The notes under the pieces: model-generated | Seen by the model: the letters and a program-made list of their open reading frames with translations, nothing else | Told to the model about the DNA's origin: nothing | Database searches by the model: none | Program-made: the position numbers and the translations under genes | Part shown: one piece after another, positions 4,020 to 53,191 of the stretch | How the letters are laid out: each line of letters starts with the position of its first letter | Position numbering within the stretch: position 1 is the first letter of the stretch | Assembly (NCBI GenBank): GCA_003707115.1 | Contig: PPNB01000012.1 | Location: 1-64,000 of the forward strand | DNA length: 64,000 nt | Origin: Tortispora ganteri | Taxonomy: Eukaryota | Reading direction: 5' to 3'

Positions 4020-5831
4020 TTAAAAAAGCTGGAAGAAAGTAATACTAATCTCGTCCTGGCGGTTACTGTAGAACACAAATCGCAACGGCGTCCAGCCCAC
4101 CGACAATCGCTGATAAATATCCCACTCGAGGTCTGACTCGAATGGGTGCGCGATTTTCCATCCACCGCTTCCGATTGCCTCTATGTCCCCGCACCTCATC
4201 CCGCTTTCCCCAACGAACAGATACCCTAAGTATGGATCGGTCTTCCCAAGAACAGTATCTAATGCGTTCATCCCGGAAGCATACATAAGAAACTCCGTCA
4301 CTGCATTGCCCCTAGTTTCAAATTTATATATGGGTTGTTCTGGGTCAAAAGTTAATCTCACGTCAACCTTGCTGGAATTCCCCACCCGGTACTTCCCTTC
4401 CGCTATATCCGTTTCATTGTACTGTTCAAGATCCACCGTCCACTCTCGCGCCAGCAGCGTCTGCGACGGTTCGCACTTGCAAGCGTTTGACACCACTCCG
4501 CAGCTGCTGCTACTCGACACGCTAGAACTCAAACTAGAACTAGAACTCAGACTAGAACTAGAACTCAGACTAGAACTAGAACTCAAACTAGAACCAGAAC
4601 TCAAACCAGAACTAGAACCAGAACTCAAACCAGAACTAGAACCAGAACTCAAACCAAAACTAGAACCAGAACTCAAACCAAAACTAGAACTCGAACTAGA
4701 ACTAGAACTAGAACTCAAACTAGAACTAGAAATAGAAATAGAACTAGAACTCAAGCTAGAACTCAAACTAGAACTAGAAATAGAACTAGAACTCAAGCTA
4801 GAACTCAAACTAGAACTAGAACTAGAACTAAATGAGGAAATAGGATTAACTGGCTCGGGTGATCCACTAGTAGAACCATATACTGAAATAGCTATTGTCT
4901 CGCCGCTGATGGTAGTGAACATGACACTCACTGTCACAGAGACTCCGCCCTGCCGCTTGACTCGACCAGCCGATCCAAAGCCCGCAACAGGAATGACTAT
5001 ACGGACTGGGTACAAATATCCACCAGCAAAGTCGACCGGAAAACTAGCTCTGAACCCATTCGAACTGTCCAGGTGGGCAGTTCCAGAAGTCCCAGAAGTA
5101 CCAATAAGGTCCATGTTACCGCACTGCATTGCCAATTCACCGTCGTACAGGTACGCGTAAGTATCTGCAAAGTTACTAGGATCATGCGCCTGTACATCTA
5201 CAAACGCAACGTCGGCTGATGGTTCAAGGTAAAACAGGTACTCGACATAGCCCTGTTCGGATACCGATGCCGATATAGAGTTTGACGAGACTGTTGCGGC
5301 CACATTGTCTCGCTGGTAGTTCCTGTATTCACCGTTCTGGATATCGCTCGACGAGAAGTCTACCGCACCCTCGTATATAGCGGCAAATACTTTGCCTGAG
5401 CTGTAAGCAGGAGTAGTTGAGCATGCATCTGCAGGCACAGTCGTAGGCACAGTTACTGTCGTTGCAGCAGGTGGCGTAGTGGGCGGCTTAGGTACTATGG
5501 TCTTCGTGACAATCACAGGTATCTCAACGGAGACGTGCACGTCAACCGACACGGACATAGACACGGACTCGTAGTATGACCAGACGTAGGTGCAGTCGTC
5601 TTTGACGAGCGGCGGACTAGGTACATATGTCACCGTAGCGGGTGTGCACTGGTTGCAGTACCAGCCTGATATAGTAGACACATGAGGCGCGCATTGGTCG
5701 TCGTAGACAGTCACACGTTTAGCACCAGACTCAGAAGTATACAAACGTCCGTAGATAGTAGAAGTTTCAACAGGTGGGCTGCAAACGAGCGTGTTCGTTT
5801 CTACAATAGTACTGTATATTGTCTGTACCAT
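4020..5831 (-). CDS. Ser-rich adhesin-like protein, copy 2; two degenerate GLEYA/PA14-like domains around a Ser stalk; no evident signal peptide or GPI signal
   Basis: First ATG at 5831 with TATATAA ~40 nt upstream. Motifs EYLFYLEP..YAYLYDG..GYLYPVRIV and TEFLMY..YLFVG..GWTPLRFVF resemble the GLEYA/Flo 'G.YYPIRI' signature. Confidence 0.8.
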   Translation of the reverse strand: MVQTIYSTIVETNTLVCSPPVETSTIYGRLYTSESGAKRVTVYDDQCAPHVSTISGWYCNQCTPATVTYVPSPPLVKDDCTYVWSYYESVSMSVSVDVHVSVEIPVIVTKTIVPKPPTTPPAATTVTVPTTVPADACSTTPAYSSGKVFAAIYEGAVDFSSSDIQNGEYRNYQRDNVAATVSSNSISASVSEQGYVEYLFYLEPSADVAFVDVQAHDPSNFADTYAYLYDGELAMQCGNMDLIGTSGTSGTAHLDSSNGFRASFPVDFAGGYLYPVRIVIPVAGFGSAGRVKRQGGVSVTVSVMFTTISGETIAISVYGSTSGSPEPVNPISSFSSSSSSSLSSSLSSSSISSSSLSSSLSSSSISISSSSLSSSSSSSSSSSFGLSSGSSFGLSSGSSSGLSSGSSSGLSSGSSLSSSSSLSSSSSLSSSSSLSSSVSSSSSCGVVSNACKCEPSQTLLAREWTVDLEQYNETDIAEGKYRVGNSSKVDVRLTFDPEQPIYKFETRGNAVTEFLMYASGMNALDTVLGKTDPYLGYLFVGESGMRCGDIEAIGSGGWKIAHPFESDLEWDIYQRLSVGWTPLRFVFYSNRQDEISITFFQLF

Positions 5832-7698: not shown

Positions 7699-9396
<1,698 letters not shown>

Positions 9397-34339: not shown

Positions 34340-36310
34340 ATGCAAAAAGAGAGTACTTTACAGACTATATTGCTGGAAAAAGCTGACATCAATCCGTACC
34401 CTGTACGTCGTCGCAAAGCAATTAGCGCCTGTGACAAGTGCCGAATGCGTAAATTGCGATGTGATGACTACTCGCCTTGCTCTAACTGTCTTCGAAACGG
34501 CTGCGAATGTATCAATTCGAAGAAAGTAGTGTACGATGGTAAAGGAGGCCGACCACGTAAAAGCCCTGATCTTCATGTTCATATTGACACCATTCCATTT
34601 ACCGTCGCACCACAGCGGCAGTACGTTCAACCAAAACCGTTCCCTCTCACAATATGCATTAATGAGTTCCCTCTTCTTCCACTTGAAGACACTGTAAAAT
34701 CAATTTCAGGGTCAGATTCGACGCTCACACCAAACTCCTTGTGTTCTTTCCTGCTTTCTAATGCGTCTAGTCCTGGACCAACTGATGCTGTATTAACAGC
34801 CGACAATCTGAACACGTACAGCCTCAGTGAAAAAGGTGGCGAAAGCGTGCCTTTCGATCAGTTCTTAAACTGCAGCAGTTTGCCAAAGGACTGGAAAGTT
34901 TTGCGGAACTTGTTCGACGCCTACTTCCAGCGCACACAATGGTACATCTTGGTGACCGTCAAGGAGTTGTATGAAGAAGAGCTGGAATATATATTGAGAA
35001 CTTGGCAGGTGCGCAGCGACAGGGAGGATTACGCAGCATGTATTGCAGTTATGCTGCTGGTAGCACAGGCTATTGATTCAAACATTTACGGGACAAGTAA
35101 TGCAGAAAGTAAAGAGAAAACAATAATATCCGAACTGGCAAATTTCGCAGAGAGATACTACGAAAAGATTTTATTGCTTCCAGCAACTATTCACAGAATC
35201 GCTTTTGTTCTTCTGTATTTCACATACCAGATCAACTATAGCAGGTCTCAGAGTTGCTGGGAAACCATGCAAGTTGCAGTGGAAATGGCTACACAGATGA
35301 AGCTGAATGAAGTGATGCTTACAACAAGCTCTCCACTGGAAAAAGAGTGTTGCCGAAGACAATGGCAAACCATGTACACATACACTGAATTTTACCATGT
35401 TTCTAGGAATAGTAGCTGGAACCACGGTCTAGCAGCGCTTTTTGGAGCTTCCGCTGCAAATGATGCTGAAAGTATCAGAGCAAATAGTTCAGAGTGCATT
35501 TTTATGCAGTATCACATATACCGCAGCAAGCTGTATAAGTTTGTCGGAAAGATTAGCGAGATAAAAAAAGAGACCAACTCCTCGTTGACAAAATTGCTTT
35601 CGTTAAGAGACAAGGTAGAAGAGGTGTATTCACAGTTTGGCCGATTCCCTGAGCTCCTTCCAGAATCATTGAGATTCGATAATCTTAGAGAGATAGATGA
35701 TGATGATTCTCTTGAAAGCATTTACAGGAAGCTGCAAACGGTTAATCTACGGTTCCTTTATAACTTCTTGCTGTTCAGCTTGCTTGCACCACATTTGGCT
35801 GTATCGAAAGCTGCTATCAGAGATGCGGCGGTACATAACCCTGATATCAACGAACTCGAAGCATTCAGAAAGATCAGTATTCTTCGTTGCAAAAGTACGG
35901 CAATGTTGGCTTCTGATCTAGTCGACTATCCCCGTATCTTGAAAATGATTGGCCGCAGTATATCTGCAGTATTCTTGCACTATTTCTTCTTCAGTTGTGG
36001 TGTCTTATTATGTCTCATTCTATCGCAGAACGACGAAGAAACGCGTGAAGATGAAATTGCTCATGCATTATGCCGCATTTCAGATCAATTAAGGAACTTC
36101 GCTCAGCAAGATCGCGCAGCCAAACAACTTGCCAGTTTGCTAGAACGTTTGGCGGAAAATGCTTTCTCTAAATCTGCAAATCCAGTTATCAATGGCCTAA
36201 CATCTGATGAGTTTATATCTTTATACTTTACCAATCAGAACACTTTACCAGATGTTTTCTTATCGAAGAAAGGCCAGCCTCGCATCCTTTCGTCCCCTAT
36301 CTCGGCGTAG
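34340..36310 (+). CDS. Zn(II)2Cys6 fungal transcription factor
   Basis: ACDKCRMRKLRCDDYSPCSNCLRNGCEC, plus a Fungal_trans-like middle region (LFDAYF, AVEMATQMKLN, EKECCRRQW). Confidence 0.92.
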   Translation: MQKESTLQTILLEKADINPYPVRRRKAISACDKCRMRKLRCDDYSPCSNCLRNGCECINSKKVVYDGKGGRPRKSPDLHVHIDTIPFTVAPQRQYVQPKPFPLTICINEFPLLPLEDTVKSISGSDSTLTPNSLCSFLLSNASSPGPTDAVLTADNLNTYSLSEKGGESVPFDQFLNCSSLPKDWKVLRNLFDAYFQRTQWYILVTVKELYEEELEYILRTWQVRSDREDYAACIAVMLLVAQAIDSNIYGTSNAESKEKTIISELANFAERYYEKILLLPATIHRIAFVLLYFTYQINYSRSQSCWETMQVAVEMATQMKLNEVMLTTSSPLEKECCRRQWQTMYTYTEFYHVSRNSSWNHGLAALFGASAANDAESIRANSSECIFMQYHIYRSKLYKFVGKISEIKKETNSSLTKLLSLRDKVEEVYSQFGRFPELLPESLRFDNLREIDDDDSLESIYRKLQTVNLRFLYNFLLFSLLAPHLAVSKAAIRDAAVHNPDINELEAFRKISILRCKSTAMLASDLVDYPRILKMIGRSISAVFLHYFFFSCGVLLCLILSQNDEETREDEIAHALCRISDQLRNFAQQDRAAKQLASLLERLAENAFSKSANPVINGLTSDEFISLYFTNQNTLPDVFLSKKGQPRILSSPISA

Positions 36311-36445
36311 TTTTAATCATCATTCTGCGCGCACACAGGTTCAGCCAGCATTTATACATAACACTACACACACATATATATATATATATATATACAGCGA
36401 GGATTTTCTTATAATAAATACAAGAAAAAAAAAAAAAAACGACTT

Positions 36446-36548
36446 GGGGCTTTCCCGGGTTTGATCCGGGGTCACCTGCAATTACGGTCTGCCGCAACTG
36501 AGCTTCGCTTAACCCGAAGCAGGCATACTACCACTATACTAAAAGCCC
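36446..36548 (-). tRNA. tRNA-Pro(CGG) with ~32-nt intron (36481-36512)
   Basis: GGGCTTT/AAAGCCC acceptor with C73; D arm GTAT-AGTGGTA-GTAT; anticodon arm CCTGC-TTCGGG^T-GCAGG; T arm CCCGG-ATCAAAC-CCGGG; long oligo-T terminator just downstream (A run 36425-36439 on +). Confidence 0.88.
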
Positions 36549-36807
36549 TAACCCAAATTTCTCAGTAAGACATATACTGAAAATCGTACAAGATTATGTG
36601 CTTAGAATTATGTATAGCTAAAGTATAAAAACATAGTTAATAGATTATTGTGCCTTTTAGAGGTATTTGCAAAAATATATATTTATTTAGATGATTATTC
36701 ATAAAATTATTGCTATAGAGTACAATATGTGTAATAAATCTTGAGAAAAGCGTATGAAGATCATAAGAGGAAGTATTCTTCCAGCATCTTATTGCTCGAG
36801 TAGACAA

Positions 36808-37719
36808 TCAAGAACTCTTTAGAGCCATTATAGCGATATTGTTCTGAATTTCTGGATTCATTAGAGTTTCTGTTTGGTACTGTAAACTAGCTTCGTACGC
36901 GGCGTTCACAGTTGAATCAGAGATTGGAGCTTCAAAAGCAGCCAGAGCTTTTATGCAGCAGGCATAACGGGCTATTGACGATCGCGTGATAGGAGGAATA
37001 TATTCATTTTCATCGGAATATATAGACCATTGAGTTTCTTCTTCCAAACGAGTAATGGCCGGGGTATCGACTGCGGAGGGCTCTTCAGTCTGTTTCGACA
37101 GCCAGATCATACCGTTTATTCCAACAAGCATATTGACATTCGACTGTAGAATATGAGTATACGATCTGCTTCGAACTATAAGCTGTGATGGTACAACTAC
37201 TAGAAACCCATTTCTAAGTTTGCCATATTTCAAAGATCGTGTGTGCAGATGGACGGTGCCATGACCAAAGACGCCTTGGACTTCTGCATTGAAAAGATCA
37301 CCTTCCTTCAGTAGCTCCCTCATTTGGATTTCATCAGATTCAGATTTCCGCCGCAAAATACCGCCTGGAAGATTTATCGATCCAAGCATTAAAGTGCCTG
37401 CCTGAGCTGCGCCGATTTCGACTTTCCAACGTTTAAGACCAACTTCTATGACCCTTCCTATGACATGATCTCCGACTTCCGGCTGATACCTGCCCTTTAA
37501 CGGCCGCACACTGATCAGTTTATTTACTCGGGCCACCGTACCGGCCAAAGAGGCCTTAATCCCGCGAGTATCGGTGAATGTGCCATGACCCTTCATCCAG
37601 GTGACTTCCTCGGTGACCACCTCACCGGGCGTCACTACCGCATAGTTTTTGTAGTCATCAGAGCCATCTATTTCTAGAGAGTTTAAATTATTAGATTTCT
37701 TAGTAACTAGAAGCGACAT
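36808..37719 (-). CDS. RRP4: Exosome complex S1/KH subunit Rrp4
   Basis: VVTPGE..WMKGHGT, RYQPEVGDHVIGR, NLPGGILRRKSESDE, LHTRSLKYGKLRNG. Confidence 0.95.
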   Translation of the reverse strand: MSLLVTKKSNNLNSLEIDGSDDYKNYAVVTPGEVVTEEVTWMKGHGTFTDTRGIKASLAGTVARVNKLISVRPLKGRYQPEVGDHVIGRVIEVGLKRWKVEIGAAQAGTLMLGSINLPGGILRRKSESDEIQMRELLKEGDLFNAEVQGVFGHGTVHLHTRSLKYGKLRNGFLVVVPSQLIVRSRSYTHILQSNVNMLVGINGMIWLSKQTEEPSAVDTPAITRLEEETQWSIYSDENEYIPPITRSSIARYACCIKALAAFEAPISDSTVNAAYEASLQYQTETLMNPEIQNNIAIMALKSS

Positions 37720-37882
37720 GGGCTTGATTGTGGCTGTGTTTAGCGTTTTGGCTGGCTATTTTGGTGGAGGGGAGTAAGGGTAAAAATTGGGATGGGTGAG
37801 ACAAGCGAGATAACTTGCTTAGGAATAGGCTTAGCAGGTGTCGACACGACACAAACAGACTAAAGAAAACCTGATATAAGAG

Positions 37883-38974
37883 TTAAGATGTTTTGGCCAT
37901 ATATGACGCGGCTGCCAGCACGCCCGGGAGCTCTTCGGAATTCAGCGAAGTAAAGATACCGAGACCAAAGACTAGGGCGACGATGGTGATAACGCCGACG
38001 GTGACGAAGAGTGCGAATTGTGGAGCATAATCGATCTTCTGACAAGCGTTTCCTGCCCAGTAAGTTCGCTGCTTAGATGTGGCATTGTATGTAGAAGAGC
38101 AGGCACATTTCCAGCAGGTGCCAATGAAAGTGCAAGAACCATGACCGCTGCAGTTGGTGGTTCCTGCATTGCAGTCAGACTGAGTACCGAAACACCAGCT
38201 AGACACTAGTTGCAGAGGGGTTATAGGCTGCTCTGTACTAGTATTCGCTAACCAGTTATATTGTTCTGTCTCAATTTCCTGGGATTCTTCTTCGAACTCA
38301 GTGTACTCGGAAGTGTCGGCGACATTAGCGTCTTCGACCTCTATGGCGTACTCGTTAGAGCGTTTTGTCGGCTGCGACCATGTTTGGCCAAGGCCGATGA
38401 ACGCCAAGGCGACGTTTTCGTATTGGGTAACCACCTGACGAATCCATTCTGAAGGTTTCTGCATAACTTTTGGCGAGTTTGCACGCACAACGAGTAAAGA
38501 GCTTTCACGGGTATAAAGGTTTGATAAAGCTGACTCAAGGACGGATTCAAAGGAGTCTTTTTCGTAGTCTAATGGAAAAGAGGCAAGAATCTGTCCATTG
38601 GAATCACTATATTCATAGTATAGACCCATATTCTCTAATGATTTCAACACTGATTTATCAAAATCGGCGCCCTGTTCGATGGCTAAACTGTAAGATCCAG
38701 TCCATGCAAACTCTTCGGCTCTAGGACAATCATCAACGGTAACAATTAGTTTCGATTTCTTCCCTGAAAACGGCATCCCTACAAATTCTGCGTTCAAAAC
38801 GTCTTGAAGTTCGTCCGTGTATAGGCTTTGGCTTTGGCCTAAGAACTCGCCCAATGCGCTGGCGCCGCTCTTGCTCGAAACAATCTTTGAATCCCTGAGT
38901 CCAGGATAAAATCCAATGAAAGACGATTCAACAGCACCGCTTAATGCTAAAATTCCACCAATTAGCAACCGCAT
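37883..38974 (-). CDS. Signal-peptide type I membrane protein with DUF3844/Vps3844 EGF-like C-terminal domain
   Basis: N-terminal signal; CFGTQSDCNAGTTNCSGHGSC..CWKCAC..WAGNACQKID, a TM helix, then EELPGVL. Confidence 0.8.
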   Translation of the reverse strand: MRLLIGGILALSGAVESSFIGFYPGLRDSKIVSSKSGASALGEFLGQSQSLYTDELQDVLNAEFVGMPFSGKKSKLIVTVDDCPRAEEFAWTGSYSLAIEQGADFDKSVLKSLENMGLYYEYSDSNGQILASFPLDYEKDSFESVLESALSNLYTRESSLLVVRANSPKVMQKPSEWIRQVVTQYENVALAFIGLGQTWSQPTKRSNEYAIEVEDANVADTSEYTEFEEESQEIETEQYNWLANTSTEQPITPLQLVSSWCFGTQSDCNAGTTNCSGHGSCTFIGTCWKCACSSTYNATSKQRTYWAGNACQKIDYAPQFALFVTVGVITIVALVFGLGIFTSLNSEELPGVLAAASYMAKTS

Positions 38975-39167
38975 CGTCCTTGTTAGTAAGTAAACAAAAG
39001 AGAAAATTCCGCTGGTGGTGGTAGATGTGTGTGGTTAAAGCAGAGATTAAGCGTTGGTGGTTGGTGATTGGGTGGGACAGCTGACTTGCGCCTAAGACCG
39101 TCGCGGGTGCTCCATCTATATTGCCCTTAATCGCGCAGTTTCCTGTCTTTTTTATATTGTTCTATTA

Positions 39168-41225
39168 TCATTTCAGGTTATTAAATGCGCTGGATAATGG
39201 GGACTGTCCTTGCACGGGTTTGTTGTTGTATGCGTTAGTGGCCAGCAGCAGGGCATCGTCTATAGATCCAGCCAACTGTACCTGTGCCTGGACATGACTC
39301 GCTAATTTGTCCGCAATATCTGCTAAATCTGCATCTCTATGCTTATGTGTGACTTTGATCTGATCATAAAGTCGATCCTTCAGTAGATCAGCTTCTCTTT
39401 CTGGCTTTGCCGCATTGTCTGTAGAAAGCATTTCAACTATTTTGGCCAATGTATCCTTCTTCTTATCCTTCTGCGGCAAAAGCATAATATTCCGGGTTAA
39501 AGTGAGCTTTTTAGGCGTAGGATAATGTCGTAAAATTACGGGTACAATGTCTTTCCAGTCTTCTAAACTTTCGATCCTCAAGTAAACGCATAGTCTCGAT
39601 ACTCGTTCAAATGCAAATAGCACCAAACAGCTTATATCTTTCGTGAAAATCCGCCGCATATCGACATCCCACGTATGGAATAGCTCGCATGTTGGTTTGA
39701 TAGTAGCAGTATCGTTCGGCCGTTCCAGCATCCCGGACCCAACAAGCCGCGAAAGAAAGTCGGCTACTTCGTTTTTCTGCCCTGATTGAAACTGAATTGT
39801 TATATCAAACTCATTCAAAATAGCTAACTGACCTAGAATATTAGGATGAACACTTTTCAGATTATTGAACCACATAGGGACGCTAATGTAATCGGTTCTA
39901 AGTATAATGCGAGAGCCTTGAATGATCTCGCGCCACTCAGACAACGCTAGCCGGATAGCTTCCTGTTCCCAATACTCATTAGTCGAGCGCTTCCAGGAAG
40001 CCGTTTGCATAGGTTTTGAAATAAATGCAATAGCAAAGAGACTACTCTCTTTGGGATGCAATGAGTCTTTACGTGCTTTGGACTGAAAAAGAGCAGCACC
40101 ATATCCAAATTGTGAAGCATCTGTGCTTATATAAAACATGCGGTTTGGATTAGGCGAACAAATGTATGGTAGATTTTGAATAGATTGGCTAAATCGTGCA
40201 GCAGACTTGCGGGCAGAGTTGTAAAGCTCATCGATCTTGACTTTTTGCTGTGAGGTTGGTTTCTTTGGCAGTGTCGGCTGTTTTTGGATCAGTTCCAAAA
40301 TTGGAGCGGTCATACTCTGGTATTCAGGGTACCCAGATACGACAAATTGCACAATGTTCCAGTACTTGCACCATTGAGGCATGTTGTGTTTCGCAGGAAT
40401 AGGAAGTTGAGCAATAACGTCGAGTTTCTCAGGGTTAGCTCTATACCCTTGCTCAGAAAGCGTGAATCCTTCCAAAGTAATAGATGGAGCTGCCCAGCAG
40501 GTACCGTTTTGTTTCAAAGCGATGCCGTGTAGTTTGAGGCTCTCGGCAAGAGATTGAATGTTCGTAATGTGCTCTTCGGCTTTCTTTGAGAAGACCACGA
40601 AGTAGAGATACCTGGATCTGGCAAAAGATTTATGATTCGATACAATTAGTTTCGACAGCTTTTCCACGGTAGTCTGCGTTTTAGGAAACCCGACTGGGAG
40701 CACGTTATGGACGAAAGAACGACCGCCCACGGAAAAGGCTGTAAGTTCTCTCGAAGACTGTAATATCGGGAAGGCTGACTTTTCCATGTCAATGACGAGT
40801 TTAGCAAATATTCGAGAAGACGGAATTGTTCGAAGGACATTTTGGATAGGTGGATACGAACTAGTTGGCTGATCGATTAGCAGATCGAGATTTCTATAGT
40901 CAAACAGAGGTGACGTTCTTCCAGGTGGTAGGTTTATGCCGGAGTCCCATTCGCTGCTGTATTCGCTTATACGGCCTAGTTTAAGTTCATTATCAATCCA
41001 TTTGGCGATCGTCGGGACGGAGTCTACCTTGCTAGAATCACGCGAAATGTATGATTTCTGCAGTGGGTCTTTCAAGTGGATAGCGTGCTGGACGGGTGAA
41101 TGTGACGGGTAAGGCTGAACATCAAATATCGAAGGATGAACAAAGGTGGCAGATTTAATACATTGCTTTGATATCCGATCAAAATTATAGCTTGAATACC
41201 AGCGCACATTTTTACAGAGAAACAT
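39168..41225 (-). CDS. Ty3/gypsy Pol-derived protein (degenerate RT + RNase H + degenerate integrase core) with putative mitochondrial presequence; no Gag, protease or LTR
   Basis: RT-like: VQHAIHL, WIDNELKLGRI, DYRNLD, TAFSV, LPVG, EEHITNI, ANPEKL. RNase H: TDASQFGYGAAL, IAFISK, WEQEAI, RTDY, NEVADFLSR. Integrase-like: FHTWDVD, YPTPKKL, AYNNKP..SP. Uninterrupted 685-aa ORF. Confidence 0.85.
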   Translation of the reverse strand: MFLCKNVRWYSSYNFDRISKQCIKSATFVHPSIFDVQPYPSHSPVQHAIHLKDPLQKSYISRDSSKVDSVPTIAKWIDNELKLGRISEYSSEWDSGINLPPGRTSPLFDYRNLDLLIDQPTSSYPPIQNVLRTIPSSRIFAKLVIDMEKSAFPILQSSRELTAFSVGGRSFVHNVLPVGFPKTQTTVEKLSKLIVSNHKSFARSRYLYFVVFSKKAEEHITNIQSLAESLKLHGIALKQNGTCWAAPSITLEGFTLSEQGYRANPEKLDVIAQLPIPAKHNMPQWCKYWNIVQFVVSGYPEYQSMTAPILELIQKQPTLPKKPTSQQKVKIDELYNSARKSAARFSQSIQNLPYICSPNPNRMFYISTDASQFGYGAALFQSKARKDSLHPKESSLFAIAFISKPMQTASWKRSTNEYWEQEAIRLALSEWREIIQGSRIILRTDYISVPMWFNNLKSVHPNILGQLAILNEFDITIQFQSGQKNEVADFLSRLVGSGMLERPNDTATIKPTCELFHTWDVDMRRIFTKDISCLVLFAFERVSRLCVYLRIESLEDWKDIVPVILRHYPTPKKLTLTRNIMLLPQKDKKKDTLAKIVEMLSTDNAAKPEREADLLKDRLYDQIKVTHKHRDADLADIADKLASHVQAQVQLAGSIDDALLLATNAYNNKPVQGQSPLSSAFNNLK

Positions 41226-41340
41226 CTAAATGGCAGTCACCATCTCTTGAATCACAAAAGTGACGAGGTTCGCAGGGTAAGTTCCTGGGAGTAAATAAGG
41301 GACTGCGGGTAATCACCACAGGTATCAGAGGACCAGAATG

Positions 41341-41749
41341 TTACATGTAGAACTCACTGTACTTGCGTGTATAGTACACAGTGGACACAATCGACAATAC
41401 AGACAAACTAACCGGGAGCGGTTTACGGGTTTTAATGGCTCGCGGAATCGAAGAGCCTCCTAGAAGCACGGAGGCAAGTAGAGCAGTGTGTATACCGTAC
41501 TCCTTGCCATTGTGCATCAGGTATCCTGCAATACCGTAAATAACGCCGACACCAAGTCCGCCGATAAGAGACGGAACAGATCGTCGTCGTCTATAGTTAG
41601 TGCCTGAAACTGGCTGCCTAGTTGATGAACTTACATGTATCCAGCGGTGCCACCTATGGCACAGAGTGCTGCTAATGTGTATGCTGGGTGTTCCTGGTAT
41701 TAGTATGAATACAATATGTTATTTCGCCTAGACTACAAGTACTTACCAT
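41341..41749 (-). CDS. TMEM14 family small membrane protein (exons 41749-41747, 41693-41635, 41590-41341)
   Basis: Missed by the ORF track. Two GTAAGT..ACTAA(T/C)..AG introns; spliced product MEHPAYTLAALCAIGGTAGYIRRRSVPSLIGG...KPLP...YYTRKYSEFYM. Confidence 0.88.
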
Positions 41750-41940
41750 TGCTACAGTTATAGTGTTATTCAAGTAGAAATTGGCCAAAAAGTGAACGGA
41801 ATCTGAGTTTATAAGTGTTGACAGCAGCGGCACTAGTGTATTGTAGTTAGCCGGGTAACCGTCACAAACTATACAACGTGGTGGAAGCCACCGCAACGCA
41901 TCGAGCGATTGCCCAAGCAAAAGCGAAGAAAGCGAACAAA

Positions 41941-42357
41941 ATGAGCAAAAGAATTACGAAAAAGACTTCGAAGGAGCCAATCAGCATCAGTAATAGTAGT
42001 AGCGCTAATGCGCCCAAGTCCACAAAAACGTCCAATGCTAGCTTGTGGGAACAGTTTACAGAAGCGTATTCGAAGACAGACCGCCGATTGATGCAGATTG
42101 ATATGTTCATGGGATTTACTGTGATAGTCGGGGTAATTCAGTTTTTATTTGTCGTTGTCGCTGGAAGCTATCCGTTTAATGCATTTTTAGCTGGATTTGC
42201 TGCTGCAGTAGGTCAGTTTGTGTTGTTGGCTGCTTTACGGATACAAACCGACCCTGCGAACCAAGGTGAGTTCTCTAGCGGTCCAGGTCGTGCCTTTGGC
42301 GACTTCGTTCTCGCGTCGCTCGTTCTTCATGGGTTTGCGTATTCTTTTATTAATTAA
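41941..42357 (+). CDS. OST2: Oligosaccharyltransferase subunit Ost2/DAD1
   Basis: IDMFMGF..GVIQF..GSYPFNAFLAGF..VGQFVL..LRIQ..RAFGDF..SLVLH..FIN. Confidence 0.93.
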   Translation: MSKRITKKTSKEPISISNSSSANAPKSTKTSNASLWEQFTEAYSKTDRRLMQIDMFMGFTVIVGVIQFLFVVVAGSYPFNAFLAGFAAAVGQFVLLAALRIQTDPANQGEFSSGPGRAFGDFVLASLVLHGFAYSFIN

Positions 42358-42577
42358 CGACTTTACGTGCACATTTTTGATGCCCACGAGATGTAGAAAT
42401 GTAGAATGGACAACTGAATACATAAACCTACTAAACCTATATGAAATCAGGGGGGTTTGCCCGTTCTTATAACTTTATTTGCCGCGCAAAAGTTGTTGTT
42501 TTGGCTTGACAACACACTCACCCCGCTGCTAACCACACTCCTCCTAGGAAACCGATCAAAACAAAAGCATCGAGAAT

Positions 42578-43183
42578 ATGAGTGACGAAGAGCAATCAAC
42601 CACGGTGCAAGCCGAGAATACAGAGATTCCCGGTGATGATTCTGTCAATGCAAGCATGGGCGGTAATACCAGCGGAAATACGGGTGTGTTTTATGAAATC
42701 AAAGACCAAGATAGATGGCTTCCCATTGCTAACGTTGCGCGTATAATGAAGCAAGCACTTCCCGATACTGCAAAAATATCGAAAGAGGCTAAAGAGTGCA
42801 TGCAAGATTGTGTATCAGAATTTATCTCTTTTATAACCTCTGAGGCCTCTGATAAATGCTTGGCCGAGAAACGGAAAACTGTCAATGGAGAGGATATCTT
42901 GTTTGCAATGACTTCGCTTGGGTTTGAAAACTATGCTGAAGCACTAAAGATTTATCTTGCGAAGTATCGCGAATCGCAAACTCAAAAAACTGAAAGGAGC
43001 GATTACCAGCGCCGCCAGACTGAAGCTGACGACATTAATGCTGCAAGTTCCACTCATGACCCTTCTGTCGTGAACGCGGAACAGCCCACGTCTTCTTCGG
43101 CGGTGGCGGTCACTGTGCCTGAACAGACAGCACTGGACGCAACTGCAGAAATTTATGACTACCCACAGTCTTACCAATACTAA
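42578..43183 (+). CDS. HAP3: CCAAT-binding factor subunit Hap3 (NF-YB)
   Basis: [52 protein letters not shown]. Confidence 0.95.
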
Positions 43184-43680
43184 ATGGAAAGAATTATAAT
43201 GGGTATGATGAGCTGGCAGCGCGCAAAATTAAGACCGCTGCTAGTTTGTTTATATTTGGGAAGTAACGATGGGTTTTCGGCCAGTACTAAACGCTCAACT
43301 GCGGCCCTTGCTTTCCTCGTATAATGTCTTTGGTTGATTTATGAAACTGGATAGTTTCATTGTACATTACACAATTTTTTGTTAACATGCTTTCTAGAAT
43401 TGTTTATAGAGAGCTTTCTTTGAAGAAAGCAATATACGCGCTGCTAGCAATTGACTCTTACGGCTGAAAGTGGTAGAGAATCTCGTGGGTGGGGAGGGAG
43501 GCAAGAAGGCAGATGAATCTGTACACTTTATCAGCTAGGCTTAGCATTAGACAACGTTATTACATTTTGGCGTAACCTAACTTGATCGCAGCTTTTTCTG
43601 AACAAAGCAGCCAATATATATTGGAATATTCATATCGAGTGTAAACATAATTCATTTATTCTCTATCTTCCTTCTGACCA

Positions 43681-44904
43681 ATGAAGCGTGTAGTTAACAA
43701 ACTGTCCTGCCAGCCCGAATCGTATCAGCGGCGGCACAAATACGTATTTGGCAAAACGTTGGGCGCGGGAACGTTTGGTGTAGTTAAGGAATGCATGACT
43801 TCTGATAAGAAGAAGTACGCGGTGAAGGTTGTCTTGAAGAAAACGGTGCGCGGAAGAGAGAAAATGGTTATAGACGAGCTCTCTATGTTGCAAGCGGTGG
43901 ACCACCCGAACATTATCTCGTTGATCGATTGGTTCGAAAGCAAGGACAAGTACTATATTGTGACGCAGCTAGCTACGGGTGGCGAGTTGTTTGATAGAAT
44001 CTGCAAAAAGGGCAAATTCACTGAGGTCGACGCCGCTGATACTATGCGTGAAGTCATACAGGCCGTTGCTTATCTGCACAACGAGAAGAACATTGTTCAT
44101 CGTGACCTGAAGCCGGAAAATCTGCTTTACCTTACGCCCGACGAAAAGTCTCCGATTATGATTGCGGATTTTGGAATTGCAGCTGTGCTGGCACCCGGCG
44201 ACGACGATTCGCTGACAACTATGGCAGGCTCCTTTGGCTATGCAGCACCGGAGATAATACGCCGCCAGGGTCATGGCAAACCCTGTGATATATGGTCCCT
44301 CGGCGTTATAACATACACACTTTTGTCTGGATACTTGCCGTATAATTCAGAATCGGAATCCGAGTTTTTATTTGAGGTGGAAGCGGGCCCAGTGACGTTT
44401 CACACGAAATACTGGACTGCTATTTCGCCTGTCGCCAAAGATTTTGTCTCTTTGGCGCTGCAAGACGATCCCAAGAAGCGAATAACGAGTACGGAGATGT
44501 TGGCGCATCCGTGGCTGAACCAGAGCGCTCGTACGAAGGCGCTGCCACAAGAAGATCTTCTGCCTAATATCCGCGAAGGGTTCAATGCGCGCAAGAAACT
44601 GCAGAAGGCATTTGAAGCAGTGAGACTGGCGAACAAGATGAAGATGCTAATGCTTGCCGACGAAGACAACGACAGCGAGTTCTCTGAATCTAGCACTGCA
44701 GAGACAGACAAGAGTTCAGCCTCTACACTGGCAGTTGATGGGTTTCTGGAGATTCCTACGGGATCTGAACGATCGCGGTCGCGGTCGCCCAGCCGCGGCA
44801 GCGGGATGAACATGTTCAGGGAAGTTGTTGTTTCTGCTACCAGACTGGCGGCGATGGAGGCCGAAAACAGCACTAAAGCTACGGATACGTCGAGCGATCA
44901 GTAA
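43681..44904 (+). CDS. CMK1: Ca2+/calmodulin-dependent protein kinase (Cmk1/Cmk2 type)
   Basis: QPESY..Y.FGKTLGAGTFGVV, HRDLKPEN, DFG, AGSFGYAAPE, and the CaM-binding FNARKKLQKAFEAVRLAN. Cmk1 versus Cmk2 not resolved. Confidence 0.9.
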   Translation: MKRVVNKLSCQPESYQRRHKYVFGKTLGAGTFGVVKECMTSDKKKYAVKVVLKKTVRGREKMVIDELSMLQAVDHPNIISLIDWFESKDKYYIVTQLATGGELFDRICKKGKFTEVDAADTMREVIQAVAYLHNEKNIVHRDLKPENLLYLTPDEKSPIMIADFGIAAVLAPGDDDSLTTMAGSFGYAAPEIIRRQGHGKPCDIWSLGVITYTLLSGYLPYNSESESEFLFEVEAGPVTFHTKYWTAISPVAKDFVSLALQDDPKKRITSTEMLAHPWLNQSARTKALPQEDLLPNIREGFNARKKLQKAFEAVRLANKMKMLMLADEDNDSEFSESSTAETDKSSASTLAVDGFLEIPTGSERSRSRSPSRGSGMNMFREVVVSATRLAAMEAENSTKATDTSSDQ

Positions 44905-51454: not shown

Positions 51455-53191
51455 ATGCTAGAACCGATCCCAGACTTGGGCCCCAATTTAGGATCCAAAC
51501 GATCCCGATCCGATTCTCTTAATTCTTTAGATTCTCTAGATTCTCTGGACCTTGACCATGTCCTGGCTTCAGAACTCTCCACATCTTTAGGAACTTCGGC
51601 TTGCCGCGATTTCGCCACATCCTCGCTACCTCCTCCGAGACTTCGTGCTGATGCGCCTAGTCCAACGGTCGACAGTTTCGATCATGTCGCCAACTCAAGC
51701 TCTACAGCACTGCCTGCTGATCTTCTACGGCCACCTCAACCCGCTATTAACAGACCGGGTTCTATCCTTTCCATAAACAGTCACCAATGGACACCTGATT
51801 TAGCTGCCAAGCGTACAAATGCTATTAAAAACTATTTTATCAAAAAGTTCCACATTACCGAGACGGAGGCTAGCGAACTGTTTGATACAGACCCCTCGCT
51901 ACCGGAAGATTTCGAACATGGTACCGATTTCTCCTGGATAGTTACTGACTTACTTATCGATAGATCCATTACTCCATCTAAGTTCCTTGAACTTCGCCGG
52001 ATGCTGCGCAACCAACGACGAAATTCCCTTGTAACAAAGCATGCGAAACCAGTCAGTGATCCGCATCTATTCAACTGGCCTGAACATCTCACTACTACTG
52101 CAAGAATTCGACGCCTACGTACATACACTTCCTACGCTAGCATTCAAGGTTCAAATGCCGCCCGAGTTGAATCCGTCACTGCCAGGCTTGACGGTCATAC
52201 TCTTTTTACTCACATGGCTTCCTACAACTTGCCCAGACCTACCATTATGCATTTTCAACTCAGGCATACGCTTGCCGCTGTTGATACTTCTCACGTCTAC
52301 TACAACGAGAAGGATTCCATATCTTGTCTGGACCTTCATACTGGTGAATTGACGCCGTTTATGTCAACCAACCTAATCAAGCCGACCTGTGTGGCCGCGA
52401 ATTTTGACTACCTCATTACCGGTGGGTTTTTTGGACACTATTCAATCAAACCTATGCCGATGCGCTGCAGCTACTCCGCCACTCCTGTTCACCAGGGAGT
52501 TATAACATACGACCGGGAGAATATCACGAATTATGTGGAGGCACTCAAAGATTTTGCAGTGTTCTCTTCCAACGACCATCATGTGCGCACGATTGATGTC
52601 ATCACGAATTCGTTTGTTTCTGATTACGAATATGAATGGGCTATGAACTGTGTCGCCACTCATGGTAAGTCTCAGTTACTGGTAGGCGATTCACGGGAAA
52701 CTTTATGGACTGATGCTTCTTCTGGAAAGATAATATCTCGCATCCATGGTCATCGAGATTACTCATTTGCAGCAGCCTGGTCGCCCGATGGGCGCTACTG
52801 CGCTACTGGAAACCAAGATATGACTTGTCGGATATACGACAGCAGACGGATCTCGGAGCCCCTTGCGGTTATCCCTACTCAAATCGGTGCTTGCAGGTCG
52901 CTGAAATTCGACCCTACTGGAAGGTTCTTGGCTGTAGCTGAACCTGTTGACCGCGTACACATAGTCGATGTCAGAACACTTCCAGGAACGGTTACATCTG
53001 GCCGACAACCACGAACTCTTATCGGCGGCCACACTCTCGATTTCTGGGGCGAAGTGACAGGAATAGACTGGCTTGAGAGTCACAATGGGACGTCACTGGT
53101 CATTGGTAATTCAGACCGACTCACTGGTGGCATATTGCGATACAAGCAAAGTTTCAATTCGTTAGAGGCACTTGATCAACTTTTGGACTGA
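51455..53191 (+). CDS. WD40-repeat protein (DUF2415-like, uncharacterised conserved family)
   Basis: HFQLRH, ITNYV, SSND, WAMNC, LVGDS, GHRDYSFAAAWSPDG, ATGNQDMTCRIYD, AEPVDRVHI, FWGEVTG. First ATG at 51455. Confidence 0.8.
   Translation: MLEPIPDLGPNLGSKRSRSDSLNSLDSLDSLDLDHVLASELSTSLGTSACRDFATSSLPPPRLRADAPSPTVDSFDHVANSSSTALPADLLRPPQPAINRPGSILSINSHQWTPDLAAKRTNAIKNYFIKKFHITETEASELFDTDPSLPEDFEHGTDFSWIVTDLLIDRSITPSKFLELRRMLRNQRRNSLVTKHAKPVSDPHLFNWPEHLTTTARIRRLRTYTSYASIQGSNAARVESVTARLDGHTLFTHMASYNLPRPTIMHFQLRHTLAAVDTSHVYYNEKDSISCLDLHTGELTPFMSTNLIKPTCVAANFDYLITGGFFGHYSIKPMPMRCSYSATPVHQGVITYDRENITNYVEALKDFAVFSSNDHHVRTIDVITNSFVSDYEYEWAMNCVATHGKSQLLVGDSRETLWTDASSGKIISRIHGHRDYSFAAAWSPDGRYCATGNQDMTCRIYDSRRISEPLAVIPTQIGACRSLKFDPTGRFLAVAEPVDRVHIVDVRTLPGTVTSGRQPRTLIGGHTLDFWGEVTGIDWLESHNGTSLVIGNSDRLTGGILRYKQSFNSLEALDQLLD

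Follow-up and report, generated by a model that had tools for sequence, protein, structure and literature searches.

A candidate host gene derived from a Ty3/gypsy Pol in Tortispora ganteri, with a lost polymerase site and a conserved RNase H tetrad

The window analysed in this study is a stretch of 64,000 nucleotides from a contig of Tortispora ganteri (PPNB01000012.1). The first-pass annotation had proposed that an unbroken 685-aa open reading frame (ORF) in it is a domesticated Ty3/gypsy Pol gene, and such an ORF is indeed present on the minus strand (Table 1). Its sense frame contains one stop in 686 codons, in comparison with 26–50 stops in each of the five other frames. The motif coordinates given in that annotation were all correct within a few bases.

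The ORF was described as wedged between housekeeping genes, and the flanks were measured. The 115-bp flank ends at the stop codon of TMEM14, a gene with two introns (Pfam Tmemb_14 1.1e-20), and the 193-bp flank reaches the ATG of a Vps3844/DUF3844 gene, which agrees with the description. RRP4, OST2/DAD and NF-YB/HAP3 also lie nearby, and the spacing among the four tandem genes that include the Pol-derived ORF is 115, 193, and 163 bp. In this spacing and in its GC1/2/3 values (0.49/0.38/0.43), the ORF looks like the host genes. Its codon-usage score was 0.016 against a host mean of 0.029 ± 0.048, a measure that cannot tell the ORF from non-coding frames because the bias of this genome is weak. 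The start of the ORF lacks an A at -3, the upstream spacer is short, and a 5-codon uORF (41226-41243) lies there in frame, ending in a TAG that abuts the main ATG.

The search for the remaining parts of a retroelement revealed no LTR-like direct repeats of more than 25 nt in 36000-44500 and no gag or protease upstream of the RT, where a stop codon abuts the ATG of the ORF. The window contains neither tRNA genes nor Rfam families at the gathering score. When 157 Pol/Gag-Pol sequences were compared with the window using tblastn, 197 of the 198 matches fell on the ORF; the sole match elsewhere (51884-52060) was weak (E 0.008). The repeat search, the upstream stop codon, and tblastn all agree with the claim that LTRs, gag, and protease are missing here. 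Namely, none of the features by which an LTR-retrotransposon element is recognised (LTRs, gag/protease, the RT aspartates, an integrase) was found for this ORF.

Table 1. Features of the Pol-derived ORF and its flanks (positions in the window; aa, residues of the ORF product).
Feature	Position	Strand	Remarks
Ty3/gypsy Pol-derived ORF, 685 codons	39168..41225	(-)	Stop codon 39168-39170
Upstream spacer, 115 bp	41226..41340	(-)	Contains in-frame uORF, read directly
N-terminal ~40 aa before RT homology	41106..41225	(-)	Ty3 homology begins at aa 42
RT fingers-palm-thumb region, aa 41-335	40221..41105	(-)	phmmer to Ty3 RT, AF2, Foldseek
Former RT motif A, KLVID, aa 142-146	40788..40802	(-)	V144 in place of Ty3 D151
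Former RT motif C (YxDD), RYLYF, aa 205-209	40599..40613	(-)	No acidic residue
RNase H domain, aa 355-494	39744..40163	(-)	Pfam RT_RNaseH 1.7e-10, RT_RNaseH_2 7.5e-12
RNase H D369 (TDAS, aa 368-371)	40119-40121	(-)	= Ty3 D358; D in 49/49
RNase H E420 (WEQEAI, aa 419-424)	39966-39968	(-)	= Ty3 E401; E in 46/49
RNase H D445 (RTDY, aa 443-446)	39891-39893	(-)	= Ty3 D426; D in 48/49
RNase H D489 (ADFLSR, aa 488-493)	39759-39761	(-)	= Ty3 D469; D in 47/49
C-terminal 191 aa, possible integrase relic, not demonstrable	39171..39743	(-)	No significant match
Downstream spacer, 193 bp	38975..39167	(-)	Reaches VPS3844-like gene

The descent of the ORF was examined using sequence and structure comparisons. 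The phmmer search aligned residues 42-510 with the Ty3 Gag-Pol (7q5b, E 8e-18; 4ol8, E 2.4e-17), the identity to the Ty3 RT-RNase H being 19-21%. A HMMER library scan found 12,797 proteins matching the ORF at E ≤ 0.001, and the 10 of these matches that were scanned against Pfam were all Ty3/gypsy-type Pols. In the AF2 model, mean pLDDT values were 71-95 when residues 71 to 490 were taken in blocks of ten. Foldseek matched this model to the structures 8r0s, 4ol8, and 4mh8, with the CaMV RT (1.2e-27) and the Ty3 RT (2.7e-24, target TM 0.73) as the best matches, so the AlphaFold comparison to the Ty3 RT-RH bears out the proposed relationship. Together with the Pfam RNase H families, these results speak for descent from a Ty3/gypsy Pol and, as judged from alignment and predicted fold, the homology of residues ~42-510 to the Ty3/gypsy RT-RNase H is genuine.

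The polymerase site of the RT region was compared with that of Ty3, whose catalytic residues (D151, D213, D214; D358, E401, D426, D469) are numbered as in the available text of PMC5371799. All three aspartates of the Ty3 polymerase triad D151/D213/D214 are gone in the ORF. In a 50-sequence alignment, the column of V144 carries D in 47/49 Pols, and the columns of L207 and Y208 carry D in 49/49 and 46/49, respectively; the phmmer register at motif C likewise places Y-L-Y-F of the ORF against Y-L-D-D of Ty3. The loss of YxDD and the KLVID reading noticed earlier were therefore confirmed in alignment register. Pfam RVT_1 did not match the ORF even at E ≤ 10, in comparison with scores of 88-132 bits for 10/10 comparison Pols. 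Going by these columns and by the model, the RT region keeps its fold and its polymerase is catalytically dead.

Meanwhile, both RT-linked RNase H Pfam families (RT_RNaseH and RT_RNaseH_2) exceed their cut-offs, and the four acidic positions said to be kept, D369, E420, D445, and D489, stand in alignment register with those of Ty3. With this D-E-D-D tetrad in place, the RNase H site looks catalytic, and RNase H activity is predicted for the protein. Several Ty3 residues are reported to touch nucleic acid in the available text of PMC5371799. In the phmmer alignment, four of these contacts are replaced (G294 by N290, R441 by P461, R445 by G465, and W446 by Q466), and at the contacts N435, Y459, and R473 the ORF has N455, F479, and R493, which are identical or conservative. 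The protein may bind RNA:DNA hybrids; as several contact residues are replaced, binding in the manner of Ty3 is doubtful. Cellular RNase H1 (RNase_H, PF00075) was considered as well and rejected, only the RT-linked PF17917 and PF17919 matching the ORF.

A dead integrase had also been proposed for the C-terminal part of the ORF. It should be noted that no integrase homology was detectable here using Pfam, a profile, or hhalign. No Pfam family matched the last 190 residues at E ≤ 10, and neither Integrase_H2C2 nor rve matched the ORF at this threshold, in comparison with 6/6 comparison Pols long enough for an integrase, which show both. An integrase profile built from 93 segments scored 1.9 bits against the C-terminus, and hhalign of the C-terminus to integrase gave a local score of 18.6 and a probability of 1%, a score that 9/150 shuffles also reached. 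The library search with aa 495-685 returned 0/757 candidates at E ≤ 10, the PDB sequence search with the C-terminus returned peptide deformylase alone (E 0.75), and the Atlas search with it gave no usable match. A tblastn match to an A-Y-N-N ... S-P motif (E 4.2) is a motif-level resemblance only. The pLDDT of the C-terminus is mostly <50, with a mean of 45.6 in the single-sequence AF2 model, and no fold can be recognised in the last 190 aa as modelled. Because integrase homology is undetectable, the reported absence of the HHCC finger and the replacement of SDNG by LTRN cannot be anchored to an alignment. By eye, one register can be drawn as W-D-V-D ... L-T-L-T-R-N ... P-E-R-E ... A-Y-N-N, the distances from D to R and from R to E being about 56-58 and 31-33, respectively. 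The hhalign register, E-R-V-S-R ... D-W, is incompatible with it, and neither is statistically supported.

Relatives and further copies of the ORF were searched for in several collections. Among the 1.84 billion representatives covered by the HMMER scan, nothing was more than 28% identical to the ORF, and a word-based protein search found 7 distant Pols with 22-26% identity. The annotated proteome of Tortispora caseinolytica NRRL Y-17796, the closest one in the libraries (its RRP4 is 96% identical), holds no protein above 28% identity, so that a counterpart is absent or unannotated there. An exact look-up found 0/7 window proteins in the protein collection, and the library search therefore cannot see this genome or relatives without annotation. 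In the metagenome scan, 110 pattern stretches were matched, none of them a relative. No second copy was found in the 64-kb window using tblastn. In the sequencing runs X1 and X2, single contigs run across the ORF together with its two flanks, and they show 0 differences from the window. Since these contigs are unbroken across the ORF, the assembly was not interrupted by a second, near-identical copy; being identical to the window, they give no polymorphism. As far as near-identical copies go, the ORF is unique in the read assembly, and diverged copies may exist elsewhere. The runs X3 and X5 were discarded, as they come from unrelated organisms and match only low-complexity or short conserved stretches.

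To describe the divergence of the ORF, its terminal branch was compared with those of 48 other Pols. The branch measures 2.18 substitutions/site, 3.7 times the median of the other Pols (0.59), the longest of which reaches 1.03. Part of the length of the ORF branch could reflect an unsampled element lineage. At the 34 invariant columns (≥90% conserved), the ORF keeps 23, in comparison with a mean of 32.6 and a minimum of 26 among the 46 matches with ≤2 gaps. The lowest-scoring comparison matches carry catalytic substitutions themselves. The two domains of the ORF differ: the branch is 2.40 for RT and 1.35 for RNase H (medians of the other Pols, 0.55 and 0.51), so that RT changed ~1.8 times faster. 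Columns conserved at ≥60% are kept in 29/74 cases in RT and in 31/46 in RNase H (Fisher p 0.0046), and those conserved at ≥90% in 10/19 and 13/15, respectively (p 0.064, borderline). The RNase H families keep ~40% of their typical bit scores in the ORF, with RVT_1 undetectable. A similar asymmetry between RT and RNase H was seen in one comparison sequence.

The survival of the frame was then estimated from the base changes that create stops, which number 281 of the 6165 possible ones. With indels not counted, the frame would stay free of stops with a probability of 0.009-0.018 if neutral divergence were 5%, and of 9e-5 to 3e-4 if it were 10%. As an arithmetic estimate, the excess loss of 28% of the invariant residues is equivalent to ~14% neutral nucleotide divergence, for which P is ~1e-6. 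Because neutral decay so large would almost certainly bring stops, the sequence is best explained by selection for a protein, which we infer from the frame kept open despite the divergence and from the unequal domain rates. The domestication proposed in the first-pass annotation thus gains indirect, sequence-level support.

These results suggest that the ORF could be an exapted Pol remnant of Ty3/gypsy (Metaviridae) origin, retained as an LTR-less, single-copy, protein-coding host gene with a dead-RT platform and an active RNase H; we give this interpretation an even chance. According to it, the yeast would retain a stand-alone RT-RNase H ORF as a host gene, the dead RT body would act as a platform without polymerase chemistry, and the RNase H domain would cleave the RNA strand of RNA:DNA hybrids. 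The protein would then be a permanent "RNase H-only" counterpart of that subunit of the Ty3 RT which contributes the RNase H activity. We put forward more tentatively that a budding-yeast lineage recruited the Ty3/gypsy RT-RNase H core, with the polymerase dead, the fold kept, and the RNase H active, as an extra hybrid nuclease (possibly organellar) or for retroelement defence. This would be the first LTR-element RT-RNase H domestication described in fungi.

The same ORF could be a non-functional relic, namely a truncated and decaying fragment of a Ty3/gypsy Pol whose frame is open through luck or youth. Decay of this kind would be in keeping with the closest annotated proteome having no annotated counterpart, with the poor start context, the uORF and the mere 115 bp upstream, with the structureless C-terminal third, and with a codon usage no different from that of non-coding frames (in a genome of weak bias). 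However, both the invariant columns kept and the branch length lie outside the range of the comparison sequences, too diverged for an unselected frame, the survival of which has P <1e-3 even at 10% neutral divergence. Nor does neutral decay predict an RNase H that changes 1.8 times slower than the RT, and we consider a relic unlikely.

As an alternative to a housekeeping nuclease, the ORF could have been exapted as a retroelement inhibitor, one that poisons the obligatory dimer formed by the RTs of related elements or degrades the RNA:DNA replication intermediates of these elements; the logic would be analogous to that of element-derived restriction factors. According to the available text of PMC5371799, the two subunits of the Ty3 RT form an asymmetric homodimer and divide the work, with polymerisation falling to one and RNase H activity to the other. 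A paralogue with a dead RT and a live RNase H could plausibly interfere with such a dimer, and fast protein evolution would fit an arms race. However, with ≤28% identity to any known Pol, pairing with the RT of a present-day element is doubtful, and the ORF has no Gag part for entering particles, which makes this role quite improbable.

The N-terminus was taken in the first-pass annotation for a mitochondrial-type leader. The R-3 rule describes mitochondrial processing sites, and an R-x-Y/S motif does occur at aa 8-11; the first 25 aa contain 5 basic (K/R) and 1 acidic (D/E) residues. Meanwhile, the hydrophobic moment of 0.47 lies inside the background range of the protein itself (0.41 ± 0.10), and the pLDDT of the N-terminal ~40 aa is 36-70 (AF2). 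On these figures, a mitochondrial leader is unsupported, its reading being a motif match only. A mitochondrial RNase H for mtDNA primers or R-loops, imported via an R-3 presequence, would agree with the intact tetrad, but the background-level amphipathicity, only 2 Ala/Leu in the first 30 aa, and the unusually short presequence that cleavage after residue 10 would leave make it very improbable.

Among the closest known systems is the Ty3 RT/RNase H of Saccharomyces cerevisiae (4OL8, 7Q5B), with which the ORF shares the homology over aa 42-510, the fingers-palm-thumb-RNase H fold, and the RNase H tetrad. Unlike Ty3, it lacks the polymerase triad, gag, protease, LTRs, and a recognisable integrase, several contact residues are replaced, and as far as the read assembly shows it occurs once. 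Catalytically dead RT folds serve as scaffolds in HIV-1 p51 and spliceosomal Prp8, of which p51 arises through processing in an element that is active and Prp8 is ancient and universal. Fungal rvt genes, which do not descend from Ty3/gypsy elements, still have an active RT. What the ORF has in common with p51, Prp8, and rvt is an RT fold that is retained by a host or used without polymerase chemistry.

Transposon enzymes retained as fungal host genes are another parallel. The available text of PMC10085805 names fission-yeast Cbp1/Cbt, a single-copy pogo-derived gene of Geotrichum candidum, and Kat1 and alpha3 of Kluyveromyces lactis as domesticated yeast transposases, and gives as criteria of domestication the lack of terminal repeats, presence in one copy only, and a locus shared among divergent strains. 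The ORF has likewise lost the terminal repeats and the other element genes. These transposases come from DNA transposons, whereas the ORF comes from a retrotransposon Pol. A full-text literature search returned no title or abstract that reports a host gene of Ty3/gypsy RT-RNase H origin in yeasts or other fungi.

If conserved and expressed, the ORF would mean that an RT fold is reusable without its polymerase while RNase H is retained, and it would offer a tractable yeast system for the role of an element-derived RNase H, the candidate roles being R-loop or primer removal, organelle DNA maintenance, and retroelement control. It also illustrates that gene catalogues may miss TE-like host genes. 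TE-like gene models may be dropped by the JGI pipeline. In the available text of PMC3516569, this pipeline masks repeats and uses homology and EST support for filtering, and no TE-dropping rule was found in that text.

Known Ty3/gypsy-derived host genes include RTL/SIRH, PNMA, ARC, ASPRV1, GIN1, NYNRIN, and KRBA2, and the ORF resembles them in this origin. According to the available parts of PMC3670739 and PMC3406341, the Metaviridae-derived genes of vertebrates are single-copy and have lost the terminal repeats and the ancestral activity. In the former source, so far as its available part goes, LTR-retroelement domesticates come from gag, protease, integrase, or env. The ORF differs from the vertebrate domesticates in keeping an RT-RNase H, in its budding-yeast host, and in an RNase H site that looks catalytic. 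RT_RNaseH is still present in an Atlas cluster with the name retrotransposon-like protein 1, which is a lead only.

The Ty3/gypsy Pol-derived open reading frame (ORF) is unbroken, and only the terminal stop codon is present in its sense frame, while the other five frames contain 26–50 stops. A TAG codon is located immediately 5' of its ATG and belongs to a short upstream ORF (uORF), which could be a remnant of an earlier start or a translational control element. The upstream gene has its stop 115 bp from the ATG and shows a Tmemb_14 match (Pfam, E 1.1e-20) in its last exon. The introns of this TMEM14-like gene are very short (about 50–56 nt); their donors read GTAAGT, and a sequence resembling a branch site, TACTAAT or CACTAAC, lies near the acceptor. 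The ORF stop is followed after 193 bp by the ATG of a Vps3844/DUF3844 gene and then, after 163 bp, by RRP4; the opposite flank contains OST2/DAD, an NF-YB/HAP3-type gene, and a CaM-type kinase.

Coordinates of the ORF and of other features in the window
Feature	Position	Strand	Remarks
ORF, 685 codons, unbroken	39168-41225	-	read from the window sequence
Five-codon uORF	41226-41243	-	in frame with the main ORF; own TAG abuts the main ATG
TMEM14-like gene, two introns	41341-41790	-	Pfam Tmemb_14 in last exon
Long tandem arrays, hexanucleotide-based	129-1167, 4522-4832, 8235-8568		(GAACTA/GAACTC)n and (AACTGG)n

No LTR-like direct repeats were found in 36000–44500, where the longest repeat family was 25 nt at 76% identity, and no tRNA genes were found within the 64-kb window. 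When 157 Pol and Gag-Pol proteins were compared with the window by tblastn, 197 of the 198 matches fell on the ORF and the remaining one was weak (51884–52060, E 0.008). The contigs of two sequencing runs, X1 (23,726 nt) and X2 (6,833 nt), each span the ORF and both flanks with no differences. As these contigs are unbroken, we conclude that the X1 and X2 data hold no near-identical repeat copy.

The Pfam analysis of the ORF detected RT_RNaseH_2 (7.5e-12, aa 340–441) and RT_RNaseH (1.7e-10, aa 360–473), and neither RVT_1 nor rve was matched. The best solved-structure match was the Gag-Pol of the Saccharomyces cerevisiae retrotransposon Ty3 (7q5b, E 8e-18, aa 42–510 against Ty3 581–1027); the Ty3 RT structure 4ol8 was matched at 2.4e-17. 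A HMMER search of 1.84 billion representatives returned 12,797 proteins at E<=0.001, and among the matches listed (150 of 12,797) the identity to the ORF was 23–28% and no best stretch extended past aa 553. An AlphaFold2 model, built from an alignment of the ORF with 49 Pol homologues, had a mean pLDDT of 71–95 per ten-residue block over aa 71–490 and below 50 over most of 495–685. Using this model, Foldseek found the RT of CaMV (1.2e-27) and of Ty3 (2.7e-24, target TM 0.73), as well as foamy-virus PR-RT and MLV RT. Taken together, these searches and the predicted model indicate that aa about 42–494 are a genuine Ty3/gypsy-type RT-RNase H with a preserved fold.

The available part of a review (PMC5371799) gives D151, D213, and D214 as the polymerase triad of Ty3 and D358, E401, D426, and D469 as its RNase H site. 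In the 50-sequence alignment, V144 of the ORF stands at an Asp present in 47 of the 49 Pols, and L207 and Y208 at Asp residues of 49 and 46 Pols; the phmmer register places Y208 and F209 at these YxDD positions instead. Further near-invariant RT residues are also changed (R105 to S, N114 to D, K241 to G, L252 to E, and G290 to N). Meanwhile, D369, E420, D445, and D489 match residues kept in 49, 46, 48, and 47 of the 49 Pols, respectively. The first-pass annotation was correct in describing a dead RT with a complete RNase H tetrad; its motif coordinates were accurate to within a few bases, and its observation as a whole was largely right. Among the nucleic-acid contacts of Ty3 named in the same part of PMC5371799, G294, R441, R445, and W446 are replaced in the ORF by N290, P461, G465, and Q466, and N435, Y459, and R473 are unchanged or conservatively changed. 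The replaced contacts call for caution and make hybrid binding of the Ty3 type doubtful.

The question of gene or relic was addressed by single-sequence tests. The ORF keeps 23 of the 34 alignment columns conserved at >=90%. Every one of the 46 comparison Pols that have no more than two gaps keeps more (mean 32.6, minimum 26), and those that keep the fewest carry catalytic substitutions themselves. The terminal branch leading to the ORF measures 2.18 substitutions per site (others: median 0.59, maximum 1.03). A stop would be created by 281 of the 6165 possible single-base changes, and the probability of finding none, indels left out, is 0.009–0.018 if neutral divergence is 5% and 9e-5 to 3e-4 if it is 10%. 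By our own arithmetic, the 28% excess loss of invariant residues corresponds to about 14% neutral divergence, and thus to an open-frame chance near 1e-6. An unselected relic is unlikely on this account, and also because neutral decay would give equal rates in both domains, whereas the ORF branch is 2.40 for RT and 1.35 for RNase H (medians of the other Pols, 0.55 and 0.51). Among columns conserved at >=60%, RT keeps 29 of 74 and RNase H 31 of 46 (p 0.0046); among those at >=90%, RT keeps 10 of 19 and RNase H 13 of 15 (p 0.064). RVT_1 scores 88–132 bits in all ten comparison Pols and nothing in the ORF; the two RNase H families score 41–46 bits in the ORF versus 95–131 in the single-copy domains of comparison Pols. 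The weak start context and the third of the protein having no recognisable fold speak against a gene. Based on the divergence, the surviving frame, the unequal domain rates, and the uniqueness of the ORF, we favour selection that keeps the protein and constrains its RNase H more tightly.

The ORF is a Ty3/gypsy Pol homologue outside the element class, since LTRs, gag, protease, an intact RT triad, and a recognisable integrase are all missing. Its loss of terminal repeats and, provisionally, its apparent single copy fit a domesticated TE gene. The available part of PMC3670739 derives retroelement-derived host genes from gag, protease, integrase, or env, and that of PMC10085805 derives fungal domesticated TE genes from DNA transposases; the ORF differs from both in originating from the RT-RNase H of a Ty3/gypsy Pol. 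No yeast host gene derived from RT-RNase H was described in the titles and abstracts of the literature searched. Domestication, as claimed in the first-pass annotation, stands as the best-supported reading on the basis of one genome. The ORF may well be a remnant of a Pol that was exapted as an independent nuclease of the RNase H type, whose dead RT body would serve as a platform while the RNase H domain would bind and cleave RNA:DNA hybrids. The Ty3 RT is an asymmetric dimer according to the part of PMC5371799 available, and the proposed role would be that of its subunit B. It is rather improbable that the protein inhibits retroelements, whether by poisoning their RT as a subunit or by breaking down replication intermediates.

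The same annotation had read an integrase in the C-terminal part, which found no support. An integrase profile (420 residues past the RNase H, 93 hits) scored 1.9 bits against the C-terminus, the best local hhalign alignment (18.6) was matched by 9 of 150 shuffles, and Pfam gave nothing at E<=10 for these 190 residues; Integrase_H2C2 and rve were both found in all six comparison Pols long enough for an integrase. PDB, Atlas, and word-based protein searches were blank, and AlphaFold2 gave no confident fold with or without an alignment. The integrase motifs seen by eye fall into two mutually exclusive registers, the earlier one and that of hhalign, which is a warning rather than support. The C-terminus is possibly an integrase relic; a functional integrase is excluded.

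The proposed mitochondrial leader fared no better. Residues 1–25 include five basic residues and one acidic, and R-W-Y-S occurs at aa 8–11; the hydrophobic moment (0.47) is within the background of the protein (0.41 +/- 0.10), and aa 1–30 contain only two Ala or Leu. These features would neither support nor exclude import, and a mitochondrial RNase H is the least probable explanation.

Among named organisms, Tortispora caseinolytica NRRL Y-17796 comes closest for a neighbouring gene: its RRP4 is 96% identical to that of the window (next best 58–60%). Counting against the domestication reading, nothing more than 28% identical to the ORF was found for the T. caseinolytica proteome among the matches listed in the searched libraries. 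As none of the seven window proteins is present in the searched collection, relatives without annotation are invisible to the search; the gene is either absent from T. caseinolytica or merely unannotated, and the available part of PMC3516569 favours neither.

Elsewhere in the window, the array at 129–1167 has two open frames, encoding Glu-Leu repeats on the plus strand and poly-Ser/Leu on the minus strand. The ORF at 144–1277 (+), with GC1 of 0.81 and GC2 of 0.08, may have been called on the wrong strand, opposite a gene for a Ser-rich protein. The ORFs at 4020–5831 (-) and 7699–8874 (-) have Ser-rich repeats and share the motif G-E-x-G-M-x-C-G-D ... I-G-S-G-G-W near the C-terminus, which in the latter is found close to both ends; they resemble members of a small family of paralogues whose products are rich in repeats and possibly located at the cell surface. 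A low-complexity (TA/CA)n and A-rich tract at 36358–36445, downstream of a Zn-cluster transcription-factor gene, was the sole spot where contigs from two runs of unrelated organisms (X3 and X5) accumulated.
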